Shown here: positions 330 through 11,412 of the stretch, piece after piece
Position numbering within the stretch: the first letter of the stretch is position 1
How the letters are laid out: the number at the start of each line of letters is the position of its first letter
Assembly (NCBI GenBank): GCA_043804695.1
Contig: JAZDIV010000049.1
Span: forward strand, 1-11,455
DNA: 11,455 nt
Origin: PVC group bacterium
GTDB lineage: Bacteria > Auribacterota > Erginobacteria > Erginobacterales > Erginobacteraceae
Reading direction: 5' to 3'
Notes under the pieces: model-generated
Seen by the model: the letters and a program-made list of their open reading frames with translations, nothing else
Told to the model about the DNA's origin: nothing
Databases searched by the model: none
Program-made: the position numbers and the translations under genes

Positions 330-2000
330 ATGAGCACCGGAACAGCAAACAACGGGGACAATAAAAGGAAGCTCTGCGGGCTCGTAATCCGCGTGAGCAC
401 GGCGCGGCAGGCGGACAATCCCGAGGGCTCGCTGAAGAACCAGCTCCAGCGGCTTCGCGCGCACATCGACTACAAGAACACGGCCTGCGGTGAGAAATGG
501 GTCGAGTCCGAAAAATATGTGCTTGAAGCCGTATCGGGGAAGGATTCGATCAGGAGCCGTGAGTTCGCCCGTCTCTTCGACGACGCACGGACCGGCAGAA
601 TCAATACCGTCATCTGCACTTCCCTTGACCGGATAAGCCGCTCGGTAAAGGACTTCCTCAATTTCTTCGAATATCTCAACCGCTATGATGTCGAGTTTGT
701 TTGCCTCAAGCAGAATTACGACACCACCACCGCCCAGGGGCGCCTGTTTGTCACGATGATGATGGCGCTGGCAGAGTTTGAGCGGGAACAGACCTCGGAG
801 CGGAACCGGGAGGCGACGCTGGCCCGGGCCGAACGAGGCCTGTGGAACGGCAGCCAGATTTTCGGCTACGACATGGACCCGATAAACCGGGGCCGGCTCA
901 TACCCAATGAAGCGGAGGCGGCGATAGTCAATTTCGCCTTTGACCATTATCTGAAGCACGGTTCGATCAGCGAGACGGCCAAGGAGCTCAACCGGAGGGG
1001 CTACCGGACCAAGTCTTACAAGTCAAGGCGGGGGACGATCCATCCGGCGAAAGAGTTCAAGTTCACCAGCGTTCACAGAATCCTCCACAACCTGGCCTAT
1101 CTCGGCCGGAAAGAGATCAACAAGAAACAGAGGGGAAGAGACGATCTGCCGGAAGAGCGGCGTTACCGGGTGGTGAAAGCCGTCTGGCCGGCAATAGTTG
1201 ATGAGGAGAAGTTCTACCAGGTCGCGAAACTGACCAAGGCCAATAACCACTCGAACGGGAATAAGGCCCGCCCGGTAAGACACAATTACCTGCTGAATCA
1301 AGGGTTCATCTGGTGCGGCAAGTGTGGCAAGCAGATGGAGGGCCGGTCGGGCACCAGCCATAGACAGAAACGCTATTATTACTACGCCTGCAAAAACACC
1401 CTCTGCCGTTTCCGTATTCCGGCCGATGAGATAGAGAACATTGTCCTGGGAAGGCTCAAAGAACTCGCCCGGCAAAGGGATATTCTGGAAGAGATAGTGG
1501 CGGCAACTAACATCAAGCTGAGAAAAGAGCTGCCGCAGCTGAAAGAGCAAAAGGCGCTGCTGGGAAAAGAGCTGGATAAGATAAAGAATTTGGCCGACCA
1601 ACTGCTTGGGGATACGGCCAACCTGGCGACGGAGGAAAACAAGGTCTTCCTGAAAGAAAAGCTCGATGATCTGGCAAAGAGACGGCGGGACCTGGAGAAC
1701 GGCCTGGAAGATGTGGATATGACCATTGAAGAGATCGAGCGGGAATCAGTGAGCAAAGACCTGGTGAAGCTTGCTCTCAACAATATTATGGATGCCTTCG
1801 ATAAGGCAAACCCATACCAGCAGAAACAATTGCTGGGGCTTGCCCTTCACAAGGTGGAGATTTCTGGTAACCGCATCAAACTGGCTTTGCGCGGCCGGCC
1901 GCCGGAAATGCTTGCCCTGGAGCCGGAAAAAGTGATGGCGCAGAGCGTAGGACGCTCTGCGCCATCCAACTGGCTCCCCGGAGAGGGCTCGAACCTCTAG
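330..2000 (+). CDS. Large serine recombinase (integrase), 556 aa
   Basis: N-terminal resolvase domain with IRVST (catalytic Ser), SGK, LDRISRS and LAEFERE..ER motifs, then a recombinase domain (FGYD, ELNRRGY, ILHNLAYLG, PAIVDEE), a Zn ribbon (CGKC..CKNTLC) and a coiled coil. Confidence 0.95.
   Translation: MSTGTANNGDNKRKLCGLVIRVSTARQADNPEGSLKNQLQRLRAHIDYKNTACGEKWVESEKYVLEAVSGKDSIRSREFARLFDDARTGRINTVICTSLDRISRSVKDFLNFFEYLNRYDVEFVCLKQNYDTTTAQGRLFVTMMMALAEFEREQTSERNREATLARAERGLWNGSQIFGYDMDPINRGRLIPNEAEAAIVNFAFDHYLKHGSISETAKELNRRGYRTKSYKSRRGTIHPAKEFKFTSVHRILHNLAYLGRKEINKKQRGRDDLPEERRYRVVKAVWPAIVDEEKFYQVAKLTKANNHSNGNKARPVRHNYLLNQGFIWCGKCGKQMEGRSGTSHRQKRYYYYACKNTLCRFRIPADEIENIVLGRLKELARQRDILEEIVAATNIKLRKELPQLKEQKALLGKELDKIKNLADQLLGDTANLATEENKVFLKEKLDDLAKRRRDLENGLEDVDMTIEEIERESVSKDLVKLALNNIMDAFDKANPYQQKQLLGLALHKVEISGNRIKLALRGRPPEMLALEPEKVMAQSVGRSAPSNWLPGEGSNL
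1926..1966 (-). terminator. Probable intrinsic terminator of tRNA-Asn, embedded in the recombinase CDS
   Basis: Perfect 15-bp inverted repeat gatggcgcagagcgt (1934-1948) / acgctctgcgccatc (1952-1966), 4 nt past the CCA, followed on the - strand by ACTTTTT. Confidence 0.7.
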
Positions 2001-2139
2001 CCTAGTGGTTACAAGTGCCCCGGAGTTTCCTCCGGGCTTGGACTATCTCATCTTCCTCGAACGATGGAAGTCGGGCGCTACTGAGGCTTATTGGTAGGGA
2101 ATCCTCATCCTCTAGTCTCTGCACGTTCCTGCCTACTGC

Positions 2140-2161
2140 CAGGACTAAAGTCCTGCACTAC
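2140..2161 (-). repeat. GTAG-type REP-like palindrome in the intron P6 extension
   Basis: The - strand reads GTAGTG CAGGACT TT AGTCCTG. Confidence 0.7.
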
Positions 2162-2241
2162 GCAACACCCTTTCGGCAGGCTTCGCTCAGGGTTGCCATA
2201 TCCGGACTGTTATCGGAATATAACGCCTTTGGAGCAATTTC

Positions 2242-2296
2242 GTAGGGCAGCCCTTCAGGGCTGCCCTTATCAGGCAGGGCTAAAGCCCTGCGCTAC
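2242..2296. repeat. Inverted pair of GTAG-type REP-like palindromes (REPIN-like) in the intron P5 extension
   Basis: GTAGGGCAGCCCTTCAGGGCTGCCC on + (2242-2266) and GTAGCGCAGGGCTTTAGCCCTGC on - (2296-2274). Confidence 0.75.
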
Positions 2297-2387
2297 GAGC
2301 ATTATCGAAATTCCGATACTTGGACTTAGGTTCCCCTGAATTCACCCGATTTTTCAACCGCGGTTACCCGCGGAAGCTGCCATGAGA

Positions 2388-2474
2388 GATCCTTCGACTC
2401 GCCCTTCGTCCTTCGACCCATTCGACAAGCTCAGGGACTACGTCAAGTTCAGAACTCAGGACTCGCTCAGGATC
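2388..2474. repeat. Nested CCTTCG...CTCAGG repeat units in the intron P1 loop
   Basis: Four (c)cttcg/attcg left arms are followed by four ctcagg/ttcaga right arms; the innermost unit is ccattcgacaagctcaggg. Confidence 0.65.
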
Positions 2475-2536
2475 AATTTTCGCTTTGCGAAAATTGACAG
2501 CCACCCGCTCTACCATTGAGCTACCGGGGAATAGTT

Positions 2537-3090: not shown

Positions 3091-4035
3091 TCAAACGGTG
3101 ACCTTCTTAACGTCCTCGCCGGTCTTTTTCAGGAGGGAGGCCCACTGGTCGTCCACCCAGGCCTGGAACTCGGCCAGCAGGGGCTTGTTCTTCTCTTCCA
3201 GCAGGTGCTTGAACCGGCCCTGGACCTTGATCCATTCCTCGATCGTGAGTTTCTCTTTCGGCTTGTAGTTCAGTTTCCAGGCCTCGTCCTCCACCTCGTA
3301 AAGCGGCCAGAAGCAGGTCTCCACCGCCGCCTTCACGATGTCGATCGAGGTGACGGGCTGCGTGCGCCAGCCGCGGAAGCAGGAGGAGAGGACATTGATG
3401 AAGGTGGGCCCCTTGATGGCGAGCGCCTTCTTGACCTTACCGATGTAATCCCGCCAGTTATGAGGAGATGCCTGGGCAACATACGGGATGTGATGGGCCG
3501 CCACGATGGCGGTCAGGTCCTTGGGGAACTGGGTCTTGCCGGGGATGACATCGCCCGCCGGGCTGGTGGTGGTGGAGGCGCAGAAGGGCGTCGCGCTGGA
3601 GCGCTGGATCCCGGTATTCATGTACGCTTCATTGTTGTAACAGATATAGAGGAAATCGTGTCCCCGCTCCAGGGCGCCGGACAGCGACTGGAGGCCGATG
3701 TCGTAGGTCCCGCCGTCCCCCCCGAAGGCGATGAACTTGACGTCCCCCTTGATCCTGCCCCTCTTTTTCAAGGCCCGGTAGGCGGTCTCCGTCCCGGTGA
3801 TAGTGGCGGCGGCATTCTCAAAGGCATTATGGATGTAGGGAATCCGCCAGGCGGTATAGGGATAGATGGTAGTTGAGACCTCCATACACCCGGTGGCGAA
3901 AGAGACGACGACCGGACCTTCCACCGCCATCAAAGCCTGTCGGATGGCAATGACGCTGCCGCACCCGGCGCAGGCACGATGCCCCGGGCTCAACAGCTCA
4001 GGCTTCTTGGAGAGTTCTTTTAGATTCAATGGCAT
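3091..4035 (-). CDS. porB: Pyruvate/2-oxoacid:ferredoxin oxidoreductase beta subunit (TPP-binding)
   Basis: GHRACAGC, ATGCMEV, GGDGGTYDIGLQSLSG and NNEAYMNTGIQRS motifs. Confidence 0.93.
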   Translation of the reverse strand: MPLNLKELSKKPELLSPGHRACAGCGSVIAIRQALMAVEGPVVVSFATGCMEVSTTIYPYTAWRIPYIHNAFENAAATITGTETAYRALKKRGRIKGDVKFIAFGGDGGTYDIGLQSLSGALERGHDFLYICYNNEAYMNTGIQRSSATPFCASTTTSPAGDVIPGKTQFPKDLTAIVAAHHIPYVAQASPHNWRDYIGKVKKALAIKGPTFINVLSSCFRGWRTQPVTSIDIVKAAVETCFWPLYEVEDEAWKLNYKPKEKLTIEEWIKVQGRFKHLLEEKNKPLLAEFQAWVDDQWASLLKKTGEDVKKVTV

Positions 4036-5353: not shown

Positions 5354-5695
5354 TCAACTTCCGGGTGGTGATTCCCTGATCCCCCATTCATCAATCCCGA
5401 TTTCCGGGACCTTCTCTTCCAGTACCATTTCGATCGCCTGCACCGGACAGGTATGAGCGCAGATCCCGCAGCCCTTGCAGTGCTTGTAGTCATAGCCGGC
5501 CATCTTTTCATCTTCAACCAGGACCGAGCCGTCGGGACAGAAGATCCAGCACTGCAGGCAGTCGATGCATTTTCCCTTATCAAGGACCGGACGGGCTGCC
5601 CGCCAATCGCCGGTCTCGTACTCAAAGGAGTTGCCGGCGTGGACAATCAGGCCGCCGATCGGTATCTCTTTCCACCCGGGTGCTTTTTCATTCAT
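5354..5695 (-). CDS. porD: Pyruvate/2-oxoacid:ferredoxin oxidoreductase delta subunit (2x[4Fe-4S])
   Basis: TGDWR..RP, CIDCLQCWIFCPD and CKGCGICAHTCP; overlaps the gamma-subunit stop by 4 nt (ATGA). Confidence 0.92.
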   Translation of the reverse strand: MNEKAPGWKEIPIGGLIVHAGNSFEYETGDWRAARPVLDKGKCIDCLQCWIFCPDGSVLVEDEKMAGYDYKHCKGCGICAHTCPVQAIEMVLEEKVPEIGIDEWGIRESPPGS

Positions 5696-6264
5696 GTCGT
5701 TACTTCCTCGAATGCTCGTTCAACCGCTTTGATATTCCCATTCAGAATATGGGGGGTGAACTTCCTGGCCAGCTCCTGACGGATATCGGAGACAACCGAC
5801 TCCAGCTTCACCACCCCGGTTGCCTTTACCAGCGCTCCGAGAAGGGGCATGTTGGGAATGGCGCGGCCGATCTCTTCTTTCGAGATCCGGTCCGCGTCAA
5901 CCACCCAGACCTTCTTTCCTTCCAGGAAGGGATACTGTTCCTTGAGCTTGCCGGCAGGGAAAGTGCTGTTGATAATGATCGTCCCCCCTTCCTTCAGGCC
6001 GTCGCAGACATTGACAGTATCGAGGAGGCTTGGATCCAGAACAAGGACAATATCGGGATGGTAGACGGCTGAGTGCATTTTAATCAGGCCGTCGCTGATC
6101 CGGGTATACCCCTTCATGGGGGCGCCCGAACGTTCCGGACCATACTCCGGAAACCCCTGACTGTATTTCCCTTCATTGAGGGCCACAAACGCTAAAAACT
6201 CCGCCACGGTCTTGGCGCCCTGACCGCCGCGGCCATGCCACCGTATTTCGATTATCTCTGTCAT
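5692..6264 (-). CDS. porC: Pyruvate/2-oxoacid:ferredoxin oxidoreductase gamma subunit
   Basis: EIRWHGRGGQGAKT and FPEYGPERSGAP motifs. ATG at 6264 is preferred over GTG at 6276. Confidence 0.92.
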   Translation of the reverse strand: MTEIIEIRWHGRGGQGAKTVAEFLAFVALNEGKYSQGFPEYGPERSGAPMKGYTRISDGLIKMHSAVYHPDIVLVLDPSLLDTVNVCDGLKEGGTIIINSTFPAGKLKEQYPFLEGKKVWVVDADRISKEEIGRAIPNMPLLGALVKATGVVKLESVVSDIRQELARKFTPHILNGNIKAVERAFEEVTT

Positions 6265-6296
6265 AAAATAACTCACTTCGTTTGTTATTTTATCCG

Positions 6297-6579: not shown

Positions 6580-7179
6580 TTAATACTCGCGACGGCCTTC
6601 GATCGCCTTCATCAGAGTTGCCGGGTCCATGAAATCGAGCGAGCTGCCCACCGGGATGCCAGCGGCGATGCGGGTGACCCTGACCCGGAGGGCTTTGAGA
6701 GCCCGGGCCAGGTAAAGGGCGGTCGTCTCCCCGTCAATATCGGAGCCGGTGGCGATAATCACCTCGTGCGGGGCGGTTTTCTTCGCCCTGGCCAGCAGTT
6801 CCTTGATCCTCAGGTCTTCGGGGTTGAATCCATCCAGAGGGACGATCTTACCCATCAACACGTGATAGACTCCCTGGTATTTCCCGGCCTGCTCGAGGGC
6901 GATCACGTCCTTGGGTTCCTCCACCACGCAGATCAGTCGGTGGTCACGGTGATGGTCGCGGCAGATCCGGCAGACATCGCGGGTGGTGAGGTTCCCGCAG
7001 ACCGGGCAGAACCGTATTTTGGCCTTGACTTCGGCAATCGATTGCAGGAGATCACCGGTCGCGGCATTGCTGTTCCGTAAAAGGTGGAAGAGAATCCTCT
7101 GGGCGCTCCGGGGACCGATACCGGGCAAACCGGTCAGGGCATCGAGCGCTTTCTGCATCACGGTCGGGTAGCGGGCCAT
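6580..7179 (-). CDS. recR: Recombination mediator RecR
   Basis: LPGIGPRSAQR HhH, C4 zinc finger CPVC..CRIC, ICVVEE Toprim, GETTALY; dnaX-ybaB-recR synteny. Confidence 0.97.
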   Translation of the reverse strand: MARYPTVMQKALDALTGLPGIGPRSAQRILFHLLRNSNAATGDLLQSIAEVKAKIRFCPVCGNLTTRDVCRICRDHHRDHRLICVVEEPKDVIALEQAGKYQGVYHVLMGKIVPLDGFNPEDLRIKELLARAKKTAPHEVIIATGSDIDGETTALYLARALKALRVRVTRIAAGIPVGSSLDFMDPATLMKAIEGRREY

Positions 7180-7342: not shown

Positions 7343-7657
7343 TTATATTCCCAGCCCCGGCAGGTTCAGACCGCCGGTGAGGGAGGACATCTGCTCCCGG
7401 CCGGCCTCCTCCACTTTCTCGGCCGCCTGCCGGATCGCGGCCAGGATCAGGTCCTCCAGCATCGGGACATCATCCCGGTCCACCACGTCCGGATTGATGG
7501 AAACAGAGACAAGATCCTTCTTCCCATTGACGACCGCCCTGACCATCCCTCCCCCCGCGCTCCCCTCCGCCTCCATTTTCGCCATGTCCTCCTGCAGGCG
7601 GAGCAGCCGGGCCTTCATCTGCTGGGCCTGCTTGAGCATCTTTCCCATGCCTGCCAC
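7343..7657 (-). CDS. ybaB: Nucleoid-associated protein YbaB/EbfC
   Basis: MLKQAQQM..EGSAGGGMV..MLEDLILAA, between dnaX and recR. GTG at 7657 is preferred because it follows the SD GGAGGTG by 6 nt. Confidence 0.95.
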   Translation of the reverse strand: MAGMGKMLKQAQQMKARLLRLQEDMAKMEAEGSAGGGMVRAVVNGKKDLVSVSINPDVVDRDDVPMLEDLILAAIRQAAEKVEEAGREQMSSLTGGLNLPGLGI

Positions 7658-7677
7658 GGTGAACACCTCCTCAAATA

Positions 7678-7964: not shown

Positions 7965-9572
7965 CTACTCCTTCACTTCCAGGATGCTCCCGTCAAACAT
8001 CTCGAGCGCGGACTCAATCAAAGGATTCTCCCTGATGATGGTCTTCTTCTTCTCCGGGGACGATGGCGGCGTCTCCACGGGTTCCCTGCTGGAAGAATTA
8101 TCTGCCCGGACCGCGAAAGCAAGCCGGACGGGAAAACCGAGTTTATTCTTGAGGAGGGTTTCCATGTAGGAACGTTTCGGAGGGGACTCCAGCGCCTCCC
8201 GGTGAAAATCGAACTCCTCGTTAAAATAGACCGTCAGAACGCCGTCTTCGAGCGGACCGGGTTCCGCTTCGGTCAGGTACGCCTTCAGGATCGGTCGGTT
8301 GGCCCCCAGGGTTTCCAGAAAATCCGGCCAGATTTCGCTGACGGAACGGGTTGGCACGGAATCGGTCTCCTTCTCCAGGTACTCTCCCGGGCCGGAAGGC
8401 TCATCCCGGTTCGCCGGAGGGGAAGGCAGGCCCGCCTCCAGTTCTTCCACCCGGGCGATCAGCTCATCGAGATAAACCCGGCCCCGGGACTGGGCGACCT
8501 TGATCAAGGCCATCTCCAGGGCAACCTGCTCTGAAATGGCGTTTTTAATCGTCCGCTCCGTCCCGATCAATTCATTGAGGATAAAGAACAAGCGGGGACC
8601 GGTGAAGGCCGCGCCCAGTTTTGTCATCTCCCGGGCTTCCTCGGCGGGGACATCGGTCAGCGGATCGGCCGATTGACTGATCGAAATGACGAGGAGATCG
8701 CGGAAGTGCCTGATCAGCGAGGAGAGAAACTGGGAGACGTTCCATCCTTGATCGATAATCTCCCCCACCAGGCTAATGATCCGGGAGAGATCACCGGCCA
8801 GGATGACATGGGAGAACTCGGTCACCACTGTACGGGGGACCAGGCCCAGCAAAGCCGTGACGTCCTGCTGCCGGATAGCGCCGTCGCAGTATACCAGCAG
8901 CTGATCGAGGAGGGATTCGGCATCCCGCATCCCTCCCTCGGCCGCGGACGCGATCGTGATCAGCGCCTCTTCCTCGCAGGGGACGTTCTCTTCCTCCAGA
9001 ATCTGCTTGAGCCGTTCCAGAATCTTGTGCCGAGGGATTTTTCTGAGGTCGAAACGCTGGCAGCGGGAGACGATGGTATCCGGAATTTTGTGAGGCTCGG
9101 TGGTGGCAAAGAAAAATTTAACGTGGGGGGGCGGTTCTTCCAGCGTCTTTAACAGCGCGTTGAAGGCGGCGGTGGAGAGCATGTGGACTTCATCGATAAT
9201 GTAAATCTTGTTCCGTCCGCGGGACGGGGCGTACTTGACATTCTCCCTCAGCTGCCGGACGTCGTCCACGCCGGTGTTGGAGGCGCCGTCGATCTCCATG
9301 ACGTCGAGGTTGTTCCCGGCCATGATCTCCCGGCAAGAGTCGCATCGGTCGCAGGGGGTCGGGGTGGGCGAATCAGCGGCCAGGCAATTCAGGCTCTTGG
9401 CAAAAATCCGGGCCAGCGTGGTCTTGCCGATGCCGCGGGGGCCGGTAAAGAGGTAGGCGTGGCCGAGACGGTTCTGCTTGATCGCGTTCATCAGCGTGGT
9501 GGAGATGTGCTGCTGTCCCACCACCTGGTCGAACTGCTGCGGCCGCCATTTTATCGCCAGTGCCTGGTACAT
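7965..9572 (-). CDS. dnaX: DNA polymerase III subunit gamma/tau
   Basis: KWRPQQF, Walker A GPRGIGKTT, Zn cysteines, EIDGASN, IIDEVHMLS, LLKTLEEPP and SRC motifs; SD GGAGG upstream. Confidence 0.98.
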   Translation of the reverse strand: MYQALAIKWRPQQFDQVVGQQHISTTLMNAIKQNRLGHAYLFTGPRGIGKTTLARIFAKSLNCLAADSPTPTPCDRCDSCREIMAGNNLDVMEIDGASNTGVDDVRQLRENVKYAPSRGRNKIYIIDEVHMLSTAAFNALLKTLEEPPPHVKFFFATTEPHKIPDTIVSRCQRFDLRKIPRHKILERLKQILEEENVPCEEEALITIASAAEGGMRDAESLLDQLLVYCDGAIRQQDVTALLGLVPRTVVTEFSHVILAGDLSRIISLVGEIIDQGWNVSQFLSSLIRHFRDLLVISISQSADPLTDVPAEEAREMTKLGAAFTGPRLFFILNELIGTERTIKNAISEQVALEMALIKVAQSRGRVYLDELIARVEELEAGLPSPPANRDEPSGPGEYLEKETDSVPTRSVSEIWPDFLETLGANRPILKAYLTEAEPGPLEDGVLTVYFNEEFDFHREALESPPKRSYMETLLKNKLGFPVRLAFAVRADNSSSREPVETPPSSPEKKKTIIRENPLIESALEMFDGSILEVKE

Positions 9573-9720: not shown

Positions 9721-10006
9721 CCACGCACCCTCTGTCGAGGCTCCTGAATCCGTTCTCCCCGCCGATCGGCTCCGCCCGGGTTGTTCCGCACCCCGCAAGA
9801 GGCCTGCTTACCGCTGCTTCCTTCCGGATCTGACGGGGTTGGCGAGCATTGCGTGCGCAGGACCCGGGCCTCAACGCTTCTCTAAACGGTTCAGCCGGAA
9901 TCGGGATCACCCCTCAATCGGGAATTCGGCCCTGCTGAAGCGGATTGCAGGTCATCCACCGAAACCGGTGAAATCAGGGCACCGCTGGCTCCCCGCTTAG
10001 CGTGGT
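9720..10006 (-). ncRNA. ffs: Large (Alu-domain-containing) bacterial SRP RNA
   Basis: The - strand has CCACGCTAAGCGGGGAGCCAGCGGTGCCCTG..ACCTGCAATCCGCT..GCAGGG (Bacillus scRNA-like Alu domain), helix 8 CCCCGTCAGATCCGGAAGGAAGCAGCGG and a closing GCGTGGT. It lies in the typical tRNA-Ser/ffs/dnaX position. Confidence 0.95.
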
Positions 10007-10065: not shown

Positions 10066-10725
10066 TTATAAAATGTACTTAGCCTTCTCCTCTTTTAATA
10101 TGTTTTTGATCTTCTTAATCTTTTTGTTTCCCATTCCTTTCAGTTGCAATAGTTCATCGTCCGATGCATTAAAGATGTTCTCTAAAGAACCGAATTTATT
10201 CAACAGGAGTTCGGCGTATTTGGGTCCTATCGACGGTATTGTCTCCAGCATACGTTTCTTCTGCGCATGCTGGTGACTCGATTTTCTCCGCCAGTAGTTT
10301 TTAGGCGTTTTGTTCGTGCCTTTATTATCAAGTTGCTTCTGAATTCGCACAAGGTATTCCGCGGTCTCTGCCGGACATTCTGAGAAAAGAACCGGGAGGC
10401 CCCAGGAAACGGTTATCGCTATCAATGCTCCCTTTATCGCCTGCGGAGAAGCCCCTCGTAACATGGTCGGGGGTAATCCCTCTACAATCAACAATTGCCT
10501 CTGCCCGTAATGACGCAATCTTGCTATCTGTTGAAATAATCTTCCACCCGTAAGTGAATTAACAAAATCCTGAGAAGATTTGCGCTCAATGTATATGCGA
10601 TCATCAATGACATAATCGCCGACAATCAATTGTCTTATCCCAAAATCAACTTTGTGTTTACTTAATGCCTGAATGACCCCTGATCTCTGCTCCCGATAAT
10701 CAATCAGAATCATAAGGCGGTTCAC
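10066..10725 (-). CDS. ERCC4-domain (XPF/Mus81/Hef-like) structure-specific nuclease with C-terminal HhH
   Basis: IDYRE, GDY...IERKS..DFVNSL..GRLFQQ and LIVEG motifs; tandem HhH IPSIGPK..LKGMGNK. The start may be ATG at 10713. Confidence 0.88.
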   Translation of the reverse strand: MNRLMILIDYREQRSGVIQALSKHKVDFGIRQLIVGDYVIDDRIYIERKSSQDFVNSLTGGRLFQQIARLRHYGQRQLLIVEGLPPTMLRGASPQAIKGALIAITVSWGLPVLFSECPAETAEYLVRIQKQLDNKGTNKTPKNYWRRKSSHQHAQKKRMLETIPSIGPKYAELLLNKFGSLENIFNASDDELLQLKGMGNKKIKKIKNILKEEKAKYIL

Positions 10726-10835
10726 TCACACAAATGGCTATCTTCTGGTATTAGCTATACCATATATCGTATCATGCTGAGAATTACAGCATCAAATGCT
10801 TTTACGCTATTTTTTCGCGAAGCGAAAAAATAAAA

Positions 10836-10923
10836 CGGAGAGGCAGGGATTCGAACCCTGGATACCCTTGTGGGGTACACTCGCTCTCCAGGCGAGCCGA
10901 TTCAGCCGCTCTCGCACCTCTCC
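10836..10923 (-). tRNA. tRNA-Ser(GGA), no encoded CCA
   Basis: GGAGAGG acceptor, CTCGC-CTGGAGA-GCGAG anticodon arm, long variable arm, CAGGG-TTCGAAT-CCCTG, discriminator G. Confidence 0.96.
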
Positions 10924-11252: not shown

Positions 11253-11295
11253 TAAATATTTACTCTCTATTTTTTTGCGCAGCAAAAAAATATAA

Positions 11296-11383
11296 CGGAA
11301 GGGCTGGGATTCGAACCCAGGGCCCCGCAATGCGGGGCAACGGTTTTCGAGACCGCCCCGATCGTCCACTCCGGCACCCTTCC
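11296..11383 (-). tRNA. tRNA-Ser(CGA), no encoded CCA
   Basis: GGAAGGG acceptor, GCGGT-CTCGAAA-ACCGT anticodon arm, variable arm GCCCCGC/GCGGGGC, CTGGG-TTCGAAT-CCCAG. Confidence 0.95.
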
Positions 11384-11412
11384 AATAAAATTTTTATGAA
11401 GTAAAAATTTTA

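Follow-up and report, generated by a model that had tools for sequence, protein, structure and literature searches.

Is the tRNA-Asn(GUU) gene of contig JAZDIV010000049.1 (assembly GCA_043804695.1, a PVC group bacterium) interrupted by an intron that is spliced out, does the organism depend on this splicing, and how unusual is such an arrangement among bacteria? These questions are raised by the first 11,455 nucleotides (nt) of the contig, hereafter the window, in which a sequence-only reading had placed a group I intron at positions 35/36 of the anticodon and had suspected an extension of a narrow host range. The insert in the tRNA-Asn gene is a group I intron, which confirms that observation. 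The best explanation of the locus, in which we place high confidence, is that a group I intron of 485 nt interrupts the tRNA-Asn(GUU) gene between U35 and U36 and that the transcript is spliced to a functional tRNA.

Group I intron within the anticodon of tRNA-Asn

The Rfam family RF00028 (gathering score 50 bits) matched positions 2396-2019 on the minus strand with 71.5 bits (E = 6.5e-17) over the full length of the model (1-253) and without truncation, and this intron was the only match in the genome (2.97 Mb, 155 contigs). The surrounding tRNA-Asn(GUU) gene occupies window positions 2530-1971 of the minus strand and is interrupted between anticodon bases 35 and 36. Its 5′ exon (2497..2530, minus strand; 34 nt, tRNA positions 1-35) comprises the acceptor, the D arm, the 5′ anticodon stem and the loop bases C-U-G-U, with GGCTGT as the final letters and U35 as the end. 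The 3′ exon (1971..2011, minus strand; first letters TAACC) runs from U36 through the encoded CCA and contains U-A-A, the 3′ anticodon stem, the variable loop, the T arm, the acceptor and the CCA itself. The intron between them (2012..2496, minus strand) is exactly 485 nt long, has its omega-G at 2012 and is devoid of an endonuclease open reading frame (ORF).

These boundaries were taken from the exon join, for which every U or C at -1 with a G at omega was tried around the Rfam match, with ARAGORN as the judge. Three joins passed at this locus, and the Asn join alone combines U at -1 with the omega-G; from these joined exons ARAGORN returned a tRNA-Asn(gtt) of 75 nt, whose acceptor stem of 7 base pairs (bp) is perfect. 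The other two, Ser(act) and Val(aac), both require C at -1 and were rejected. The coordinates and anatomy given by the sequence-only reading (485-nt spacing, P3/P7, the U.G guide and the terminal G) were right, read on the minus strand, and so was its expectation that tRNA finders would miss the gene. With default settings, ARAGORN listed only two tRNA-Ser genes in the whole window and no tRNA-Asn, and its intron mode called a tRNA-Tyr that is false, so that the split gene escapes standard tRNA finders. A terminator-like hairpin (1934..1966, minus strand; a 15-bp stem followed by a T run) stands 5 nt past the tRNA 3′ end. On the upstream side, the stretch 2535-2560 is made of short ACTGAT-like units, for which blastn-short returned about 28 matches in other parts of the genome; a sigma-70-like promoter was not called in the interval that separates these units from the tRNA.

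The secondary structure can be followed along the minus strand from the guide to the 3′ splice site. The internal guide sequence GCAGC (2376..2380, the 3′ strand of P1) pairs with the exon letters GCUGU (2501-2497), the U35.G wobble at the splice site being the last pair. P2 (2358..2373) is a hairpin of two CCGCGG strands with a GUAA loop, and four of its six pairs show compensatory change among homologues. The catalytic core (2071..2349) contains P3 (2349-2345/2075-2071), P4 (2339-2334/2192-2187), P5, P5a, P6, P6a and the 5′ strand of P7 (2117-2113), followed by an extra hairpin between P7 and P3′ (2112-2083), which is handled as an insert in the Rfam alignment. The last part (2019..2070) holds P8 (2070-2052), the 3′ strand of P7 (2045-2041) and the P9 hairpin with its GAAA loop (2036-2019). 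The sequence also shows the motif CCUAAG/UAUGG in P5 and GAAA in the L9 loop, which may form a receptor and tetraloop pair. Two ORFs on the plus strand (2015-2245 and 2091-2339) run antisense to the ribozyme core.

For the covariation analysis, a MAFFT alignment of 12 rows was made from this copy and 11 homologues that share its subtype. A P1-P9 model of 62 pairs in 13 helices was drawn by hand from one row, and its pairs were counted on the MAFFT alignment. Standard pairs filled 98.4% of the cells (12 homologues), a change on both sides was seen in 29 of the 62 modelled pairs, and not one of 500 shuffles attained any of the five measures; slid controls, in which the 3′ partners were shifted by 1-3 columns, had 30-46% of their cells paired. 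Covariation was found in P2, P5a, P6a, P8 (5/6 pairs), P9 (5/7 pairs) and the extra P7-P3′ hairpin. P7 was invariant in 12/12 rows and P1 likewise showed no variation, and as neither ever varies both are uninformative in this respect. The five P1 pairs did not differ in any row that has letters there (12, 12, 12, 11 and 11 of 12, as MAFFT misaligns one row), the U.G was seen in all 11 rows (of 12) that have letters there, and a G precedes the 3′ exon in 17/17 mapped Asn loci, although the search itself demanded a G at this place. RNAalifold, run on eight homologues with no hand input, recovered the anticodon stem, P1, P2, P4, P5, P5a, P7 and P9.

Insertions, proposed splicing and probable dependence on the split gene

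The shortest homologous introns measure 203-275 nt, as compared to 485 nt here, and the difference is due to two insertions, one in the P1 loop (L1) and one in distal P5. The L1 insertion (2381..2496, minus strand; about 116 nt) separates the 5′ splice site from the guide sequence and consists of a short hairpin starting from intron base 1, followed by a long imperfect hairpin of facing short units; the fold of 2496-2379 has a minimum free energy (MFE) of -38.2 kcal/mol with closed hairpins. In the shortest relative (L010) the same loop has only about 8 nt. The second insertion, distal to P5a (2204..2321, minus strand; 118 nt), folds as a closed hairpin (MFE -54.7 kcal/mol) and is missing from the short relatives. 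Contigs of relatives in public sequencing runs bypass it, with joints from 2203 to 2322/2324 and different letters between.

The centre of the second L1 hairpin carries the motif ATCCTGAGCG, of which the genome has 21 copies, about seven lying in intergenic hairpin arrays of a similar kind. We rejected the idea that the insertions are simple multi-copy genome repeats: blastn-short gave only 1-3 weak matches within the intron, and of the two GC hairpins, that at 2245 had 0 and that at 2274 had 1 other exact-type copy in the genome. A looser likeness is retained, in which the L1 hairpin would resemble the hairpin arrays of the genome at the level of class only, the ATCCTGAGCG-centred type being the sole one that recurs. 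The opening hairpin of the P1 loop (TTTTCGC-loop-GCGAAAA) was also seen at 10812-10828, just downstream of tRNA-Ser(gga), and on contig C48 of the genome (C48:34285).

No sense-strand ORF of at least 60 amino acids (aa) was found inside 2012-2496. When the HNH protein encoded in the intron of a relative (L007) was searched against the window with tblastn, the match was confined to 17 residues, those overlapping the ribozyme core. A homing endonuclease ORF within the intron, by which a mobile (endonuclease-encoding) intron is recognized, is thus not present in this copy, and the HNH homing-endonuclease gene was either lost from it or was never there.

The two-step group I pathway has been established for the Azoarcus pre-tRNA-Ile intron, as described in PMC13168695 and PMC3984707. 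For the present intron, we infer the catalytic steps and self-splicing from this known chemistry and from its membership in the family. The precursor would be a single RNA ending at the hairpin terminator (1966-1934), in which the anticodon-stem and loop bases G31-U35 would pair with the guide GCAGC to form P1, with U35 in a wobble pair with G where cleavage would occur. The P7 pocket would bind an external guanosine, which would attack after U35, the omega-G (2012) would then take the place of this guanosine, and the freed 3′-OH of U35 would attack the bond before U36, by which the exons would be joined and the GUU anticodon restored.

The long L1 insertion bears on how much of this could proceed unaided. 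With about 116 nt separating the guide from the 5′ splice site, the loop over which P1 has to close is long, and many group I introns need protein cofactors (PMC3984707); the hairpin insertions might accordingly block unaided self-splicing, with splicing in vivo taking place only with a helper such as a protein chaperone or a maturase-like factor. We regard this as unlikely, given that both inserts fold as closed hairpins that bring their ends together, that an ORF of about 350 nt is tolerated at the same place in relatives, and that no candidate cofactor gene was seen adjoining the intron.

Several points nevertheless weigh against the interpretation of a split gene spliced to a functional tRNA. 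The two insertions of about 118 nt, one of which sits in the P1 loop itself, could delay or hinder folding, and this copy has one A-A pair at the base of P8. The structural model was drawn from one of the rows and counted on the MAFFT alignment, which gives it an advantage over the slid controls in the measure of cells paired. The genome is 88% complete, and further tRNAs, e.g., that for His, are absent from the ARAGORN list. Finally, the public runs, which contain at most 13% of the sampled words, offered no ligated tRNA read from this organism and so count neither for nor against its splicing. In four of these runs (three RNA libraries and one of unknown kind), the matching contigs were either the unspliced short forms of relatives, without both insertions, or intact tRNA-Asn genes of unknown origin. 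Two metatranscriptome runs (X19 and X20; window 2172-2531) contained the intron-bearing tRNA-Asn of close relatives, for which carry-over of DNA is possible.

The dependence of the organism on splicing hinges on whether another tRNA-Asn gene exists. As the sequence-only reading had proposed, the tRNA-Asn genes were counted, and ARAGORN found no second one among the 36 tRNA genes on the 155 contigs, an absence that is not proven given the 88% completeness and the lack of tRNA-His and others in the same list. Given this result, splicing is probably essential, being probably needed for all Asn decoding. The same question was asked of the 79 species genomes of the host's phylum, using a pattern for an intact gene (uninterrupted anticodon arm plus T arm), which matched in 45/79 genomes; a looser pattern added two more tRNA-like matches (G007 and G053) along with some un-tRNA-like ones. 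A tRNA-like intact Asn match was missing in 13 of the 14 genomes with a split gene and present in 46 of the other 65. The only split-gene genome with such a match, G001, has it on another contig and with a different anticodon stem, and its contamination is estimated at 8%.

These counts are pertinent to a reading in which the intron is a dead insertion and the interrupted gene a pseudogene, with a working tRNA-Asn located in the unassembled 12% of the genome. The incompleteness of the genome together with the other tRNA species missing from the list, the large insertions in L1 and P5, and the intact-type match on another contig of G001 could all be taken in its favour. On the other hand, the core of this copy is intact, with 61 of the 62 modelled pairs standard, and P1, P7 and the omega-G are identical to those of homologues from other phyla. 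The 13 split-gene genomes in which no tRNA-like intact match was found include several that are 92-98% complete, and both the contamination of G001 and the deviating anticodon stem of its match reduce the weight of that exception. A dead insertion is therefore highly improbable in our estimation.

The split gene has consequences for annotation, as this genome and 13 others of the phylum are scored by tRNA finders as being without tRNA-Asn, while they do have the gene in split form. Since the split tRNA-Asn is missed, inferences on the completeness of metagenome-assembled genomes (MAGs) and on codon capacity will be wrong unless searches are intron-aware.

Distribution, origin and earlier descriptions

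The sequence-only reading had judged that the host does not look like a patescibacterium, and this held: the genome has 2.97 Mb and 57.8% GC, and the best named relatives of its DnaX, which are about 40% identical, carry the labels Verrucomicrobiota, Omnitrophota and Lentisphaerae and so fall in the PVC group and Omnitrophota. The range extension that was built on this judgement was not supported. A search for RF00028 in the 79 genomes of the phylum gave matches in 20 genomes at 23 places, 14 of which are tRNA-Asn(gtt) genes whose intron follows loop nucleotide 4, with U preceding it at -1 and the omega-G closing it. These 14 introns (14/79 genomes, 8 families) are 233-655 nt long and share the guide GCAGC. 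Where loci gave multiple ARAGORN joins, as many did, the join with U at -1, a 7-nt loop and guide pairing was retained. Two subtypes of the Asn intron occur in the phylum, one with the extra P7-P3′ hairpin, to which this copy belongs, and one without. In two of the loci (L007 and L008) the P1 loop contains an HNH ORF of 117-135 aa, with borderline Pfam HNH scores of 21.5 and 20.7 bits (cut-off 21.4).

The remaining intron loci of the phylum (L014, L015, L099, L012, L013, L016 and L101-L103) comprise a tRNA-Met(cat) split after loop nucleotide 2 in three genomes (three places, 650-663 nt), one tRNA-Lys(ttt), one tRNA-Arg(tct) and four matches that could not be assigned to a host gene.

Beyond the phylum, 50 named genomes reached through their DnaX loci were searched for the signature of a split gene, which was present in three of them, namely a MAG of Nitrospiraceae, one of Nitrospira and one of Candidatus Omnitrophota. 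In each case the interrupted gene is tRNA-Asn, with the intron at the identical point. The Nitrospira copy (L105) has an HNH ORF in its P1 loop, in two frames, and the HNH ORFs of L007, L008 and L105 are 60-82% identical. Among the genomes sampled from the phyla of the Nitrospiraceae and the Omnitrophota MAG, the signature occurred in 21/301 and 42/301, respectively. Because 14/79, 21/301, 42/301 and 3/50 genomes share the intron or its signature at the same site, the intron is one more member of a common family and not an extension of a narrow range. The organism, from a lineage outside the candidate phyla radiation, probably relies on a ribozyme for its whole Asn decoding, and the pattern counts extend this to parts of two further phyla. 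The finding leaves the general knowledge of group I introns unchanged, as the intron is real but a fairly ordinary member of a family common in several bacterial phyla.

Within three genera, genomes with identical exons differ in the presence of the intron (present in G013 and absent in G011; present in G002, G005, G006 and G008 and absent in G007; present in G059 and absent in G039 and G060). With such presence and absence within genera, and HNH genes in some copies, the Asn intron family appears to be still mobile. Whether this particular copy arrived recently, via endonuclease-driven homing or other lateral transfer, or was inherited from an ancestor of the phylum is to our judgement an evenly balanced matter. 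A recent arrival would agree with the varying presence at identical exons, with the 60-82% identity of the HNH ORFs across phyla, with the core of the Nitrospiraceae copies being close to that of this copy, and with the two intron subtypes at one site within the phylum. Closely similar copies are however found in 5/8 other genomes of the host's family as well as in a genome of the same genus, a spread across the family that fits vertical descent within it.

Four classical settings of bacterial tRNA introns, i.e., Leu.3Ug, Arg.5Ug, fMet.2Ug and Ile2.5Ug, all assigned to subgroup IC3, were raised to 21 by 17 new ones (Williams 2020, bioRxiv 10.1101/2020.01.27.920355). By the naming rule of that study, the intron described here is 'Asn.4Ug' (loop CUGU/UAA, inserted after nucleotide 4, U at -1, omega-G); it was found in the same way, as an Rfam match inside a split tRNA, but lies outside the four classical settings. 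'Asn' occurs 0 times in the running text of Williams 2020, the settings being named in Table 1 and Fig. 3, which stand outside that text. Our literature searches found no paper that names a bacterial tRNA-Asn group I intron or 'Asn.4Ug', nor is such an intron mentioned in the available parts of PMC5733544, the tRNAscan-SE 2.0 preprint and PMC11835236. A recent report of Asn 35/36 introns limited to Patescibacteria, to which the sequence-only reading had referred, was not traced in these searches either.

In comparison with the tRNA-Ile2 intron, the present one likewise sits in a bacterial tRNA anticodon loop, its P3-P9 core is compact, and the tRNA body remains joined to it through the anticodon stem. 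It differs in its insertion point (Asn 35/36, i.e., loop position 4, as opposed to position 5 in Ile2 by the numbering of Williams), in its length of 485 nt with two peripheral insertions of about 118 nt and the extra P7-P3′ hairpin, and in that self-splicing is here predicted from sequence. There is also a resemblance to the endonuclease-bearing tRNA introns such as that of fMet, as three relatives (L007, L008 and L105) have a small intronic endonuclease ORF and the intron itself occurs in some close relatives but not in others; this ORF is, however, of the HNH type (with borderline Pfam scores) and placed in the P1 loop, and the copy in the window is free of it. An endonuclease of the tRNA-fMet intron was reportedly described by Bonocora and Shub in 2001.

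Serine recombinase and neighbouring genes

The less expected part of the locus is the association of a recombinase with the tRNA-Asn 3′ end. A gene for a large serine recombinase (330..2000, plus strand; 556 aa) is convergent with the tRNA, and its last 30 nt overlap the T-arm and acceptor end. The protein has the domains Resolvase (PF00239, 5.5e-32), Recombinase (PF07508, 5.5e-19) and Zn_ribbon_recom (PF13408, 8.1e-10), and its nearest homologues, one from another family of the phylum and one from the Omnitrophota MAG, share 75% and 47% identity with it, respectively. Homologues that are convergent with tRNA-Asn and abut or overlap it were present at 7/17 split and 7-8/20 intact loci (loci L098, L106, L006-L008, L097, L107, L108, L111, L112, L114, L124 and L126), and at none of 5 other intron loci. 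We therefore rejected the possibility that the recombinase travels with the intron: it adjoins intact tRNA-Asn genes about as often as split ones, which together with its absence from the other intron loci indicates an association with tRNA-Asn rather than with the intron.

Genomic islands integrate at the 3′ ends of tRNA genes, usually with tyrosine integrases. The locus is similar in that a recombinase gene adjoins the tRNA 3′ end and the T-arm is unlike that of the family, and differs in that the enzyme is a large serine recombinase whose ORF runs into the tRNA. The T-arm here is AGAGG/CCTCT with an encoded CCA, as opposed to GCAAG/CTTGC in the family, and matches that of the recombinase-bearing Omnitrophota locus; the departure from the tRNA sequence of the family starts exactly at the stop codon of the recombinase (1998-2000). 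This one comparison, in which the other end of the element lies off the contig (whose sequence stops at base 1), suggests that an integrated element may have supplied the 3′ part of the tRNA-Asn gene.

A nest of selfish elements in three layers, all on one essential gene, can tentatively be proposed on this basis, although we consider it rather doubtful. It would consist of a serine-recombinase element that uses tRNA-Asn as its attachment site and gave the T-arm, the CCA end and the terminator, of the intron in the anticodon, and of host hairpin-array repeats in the L1 and P5 loops, where relatives keep the endonuclease gene. The working tRNA would then be a chimera of a host 5′ half, the intron and an element-borne 3′ end.

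The contigs of several relatives stop inside or right after tRNA-Asn (G022:C1 and G022:C2, i.e., L120 and L121; G020:C33; G029:C6), and the two such contig ends of G022 have the same tRNA sequence. As these contigs end at tRNA-Asn, a repeat or an integrated element is suggested to be present at the site and to break the assemblies of relatives.

The genes nearby are ordinary and located on the minus strand (3091-4035, 5692-6276, 6580-7179, 7343-7666, 7965-9572 and 10066-10725). Their products are a thiamine pyrophosphate (TPP)-binding 2-oxoacid:ferredoxin oxidoreductase subunit and a POR-family subunit of such an enzyme, RecR, YbaB, DnaX and an ERCC4/helix-hairpin-helix (HhH) nuclease. The RNA genes, likewise ordinary and on the minus strand, comprise a bacterial large signal recognition particle (SRP) RNA (9721-10005, 116.3 bits) and the two tRNA-Ser genes, gga (10836-10923) and cga (11295-11384).

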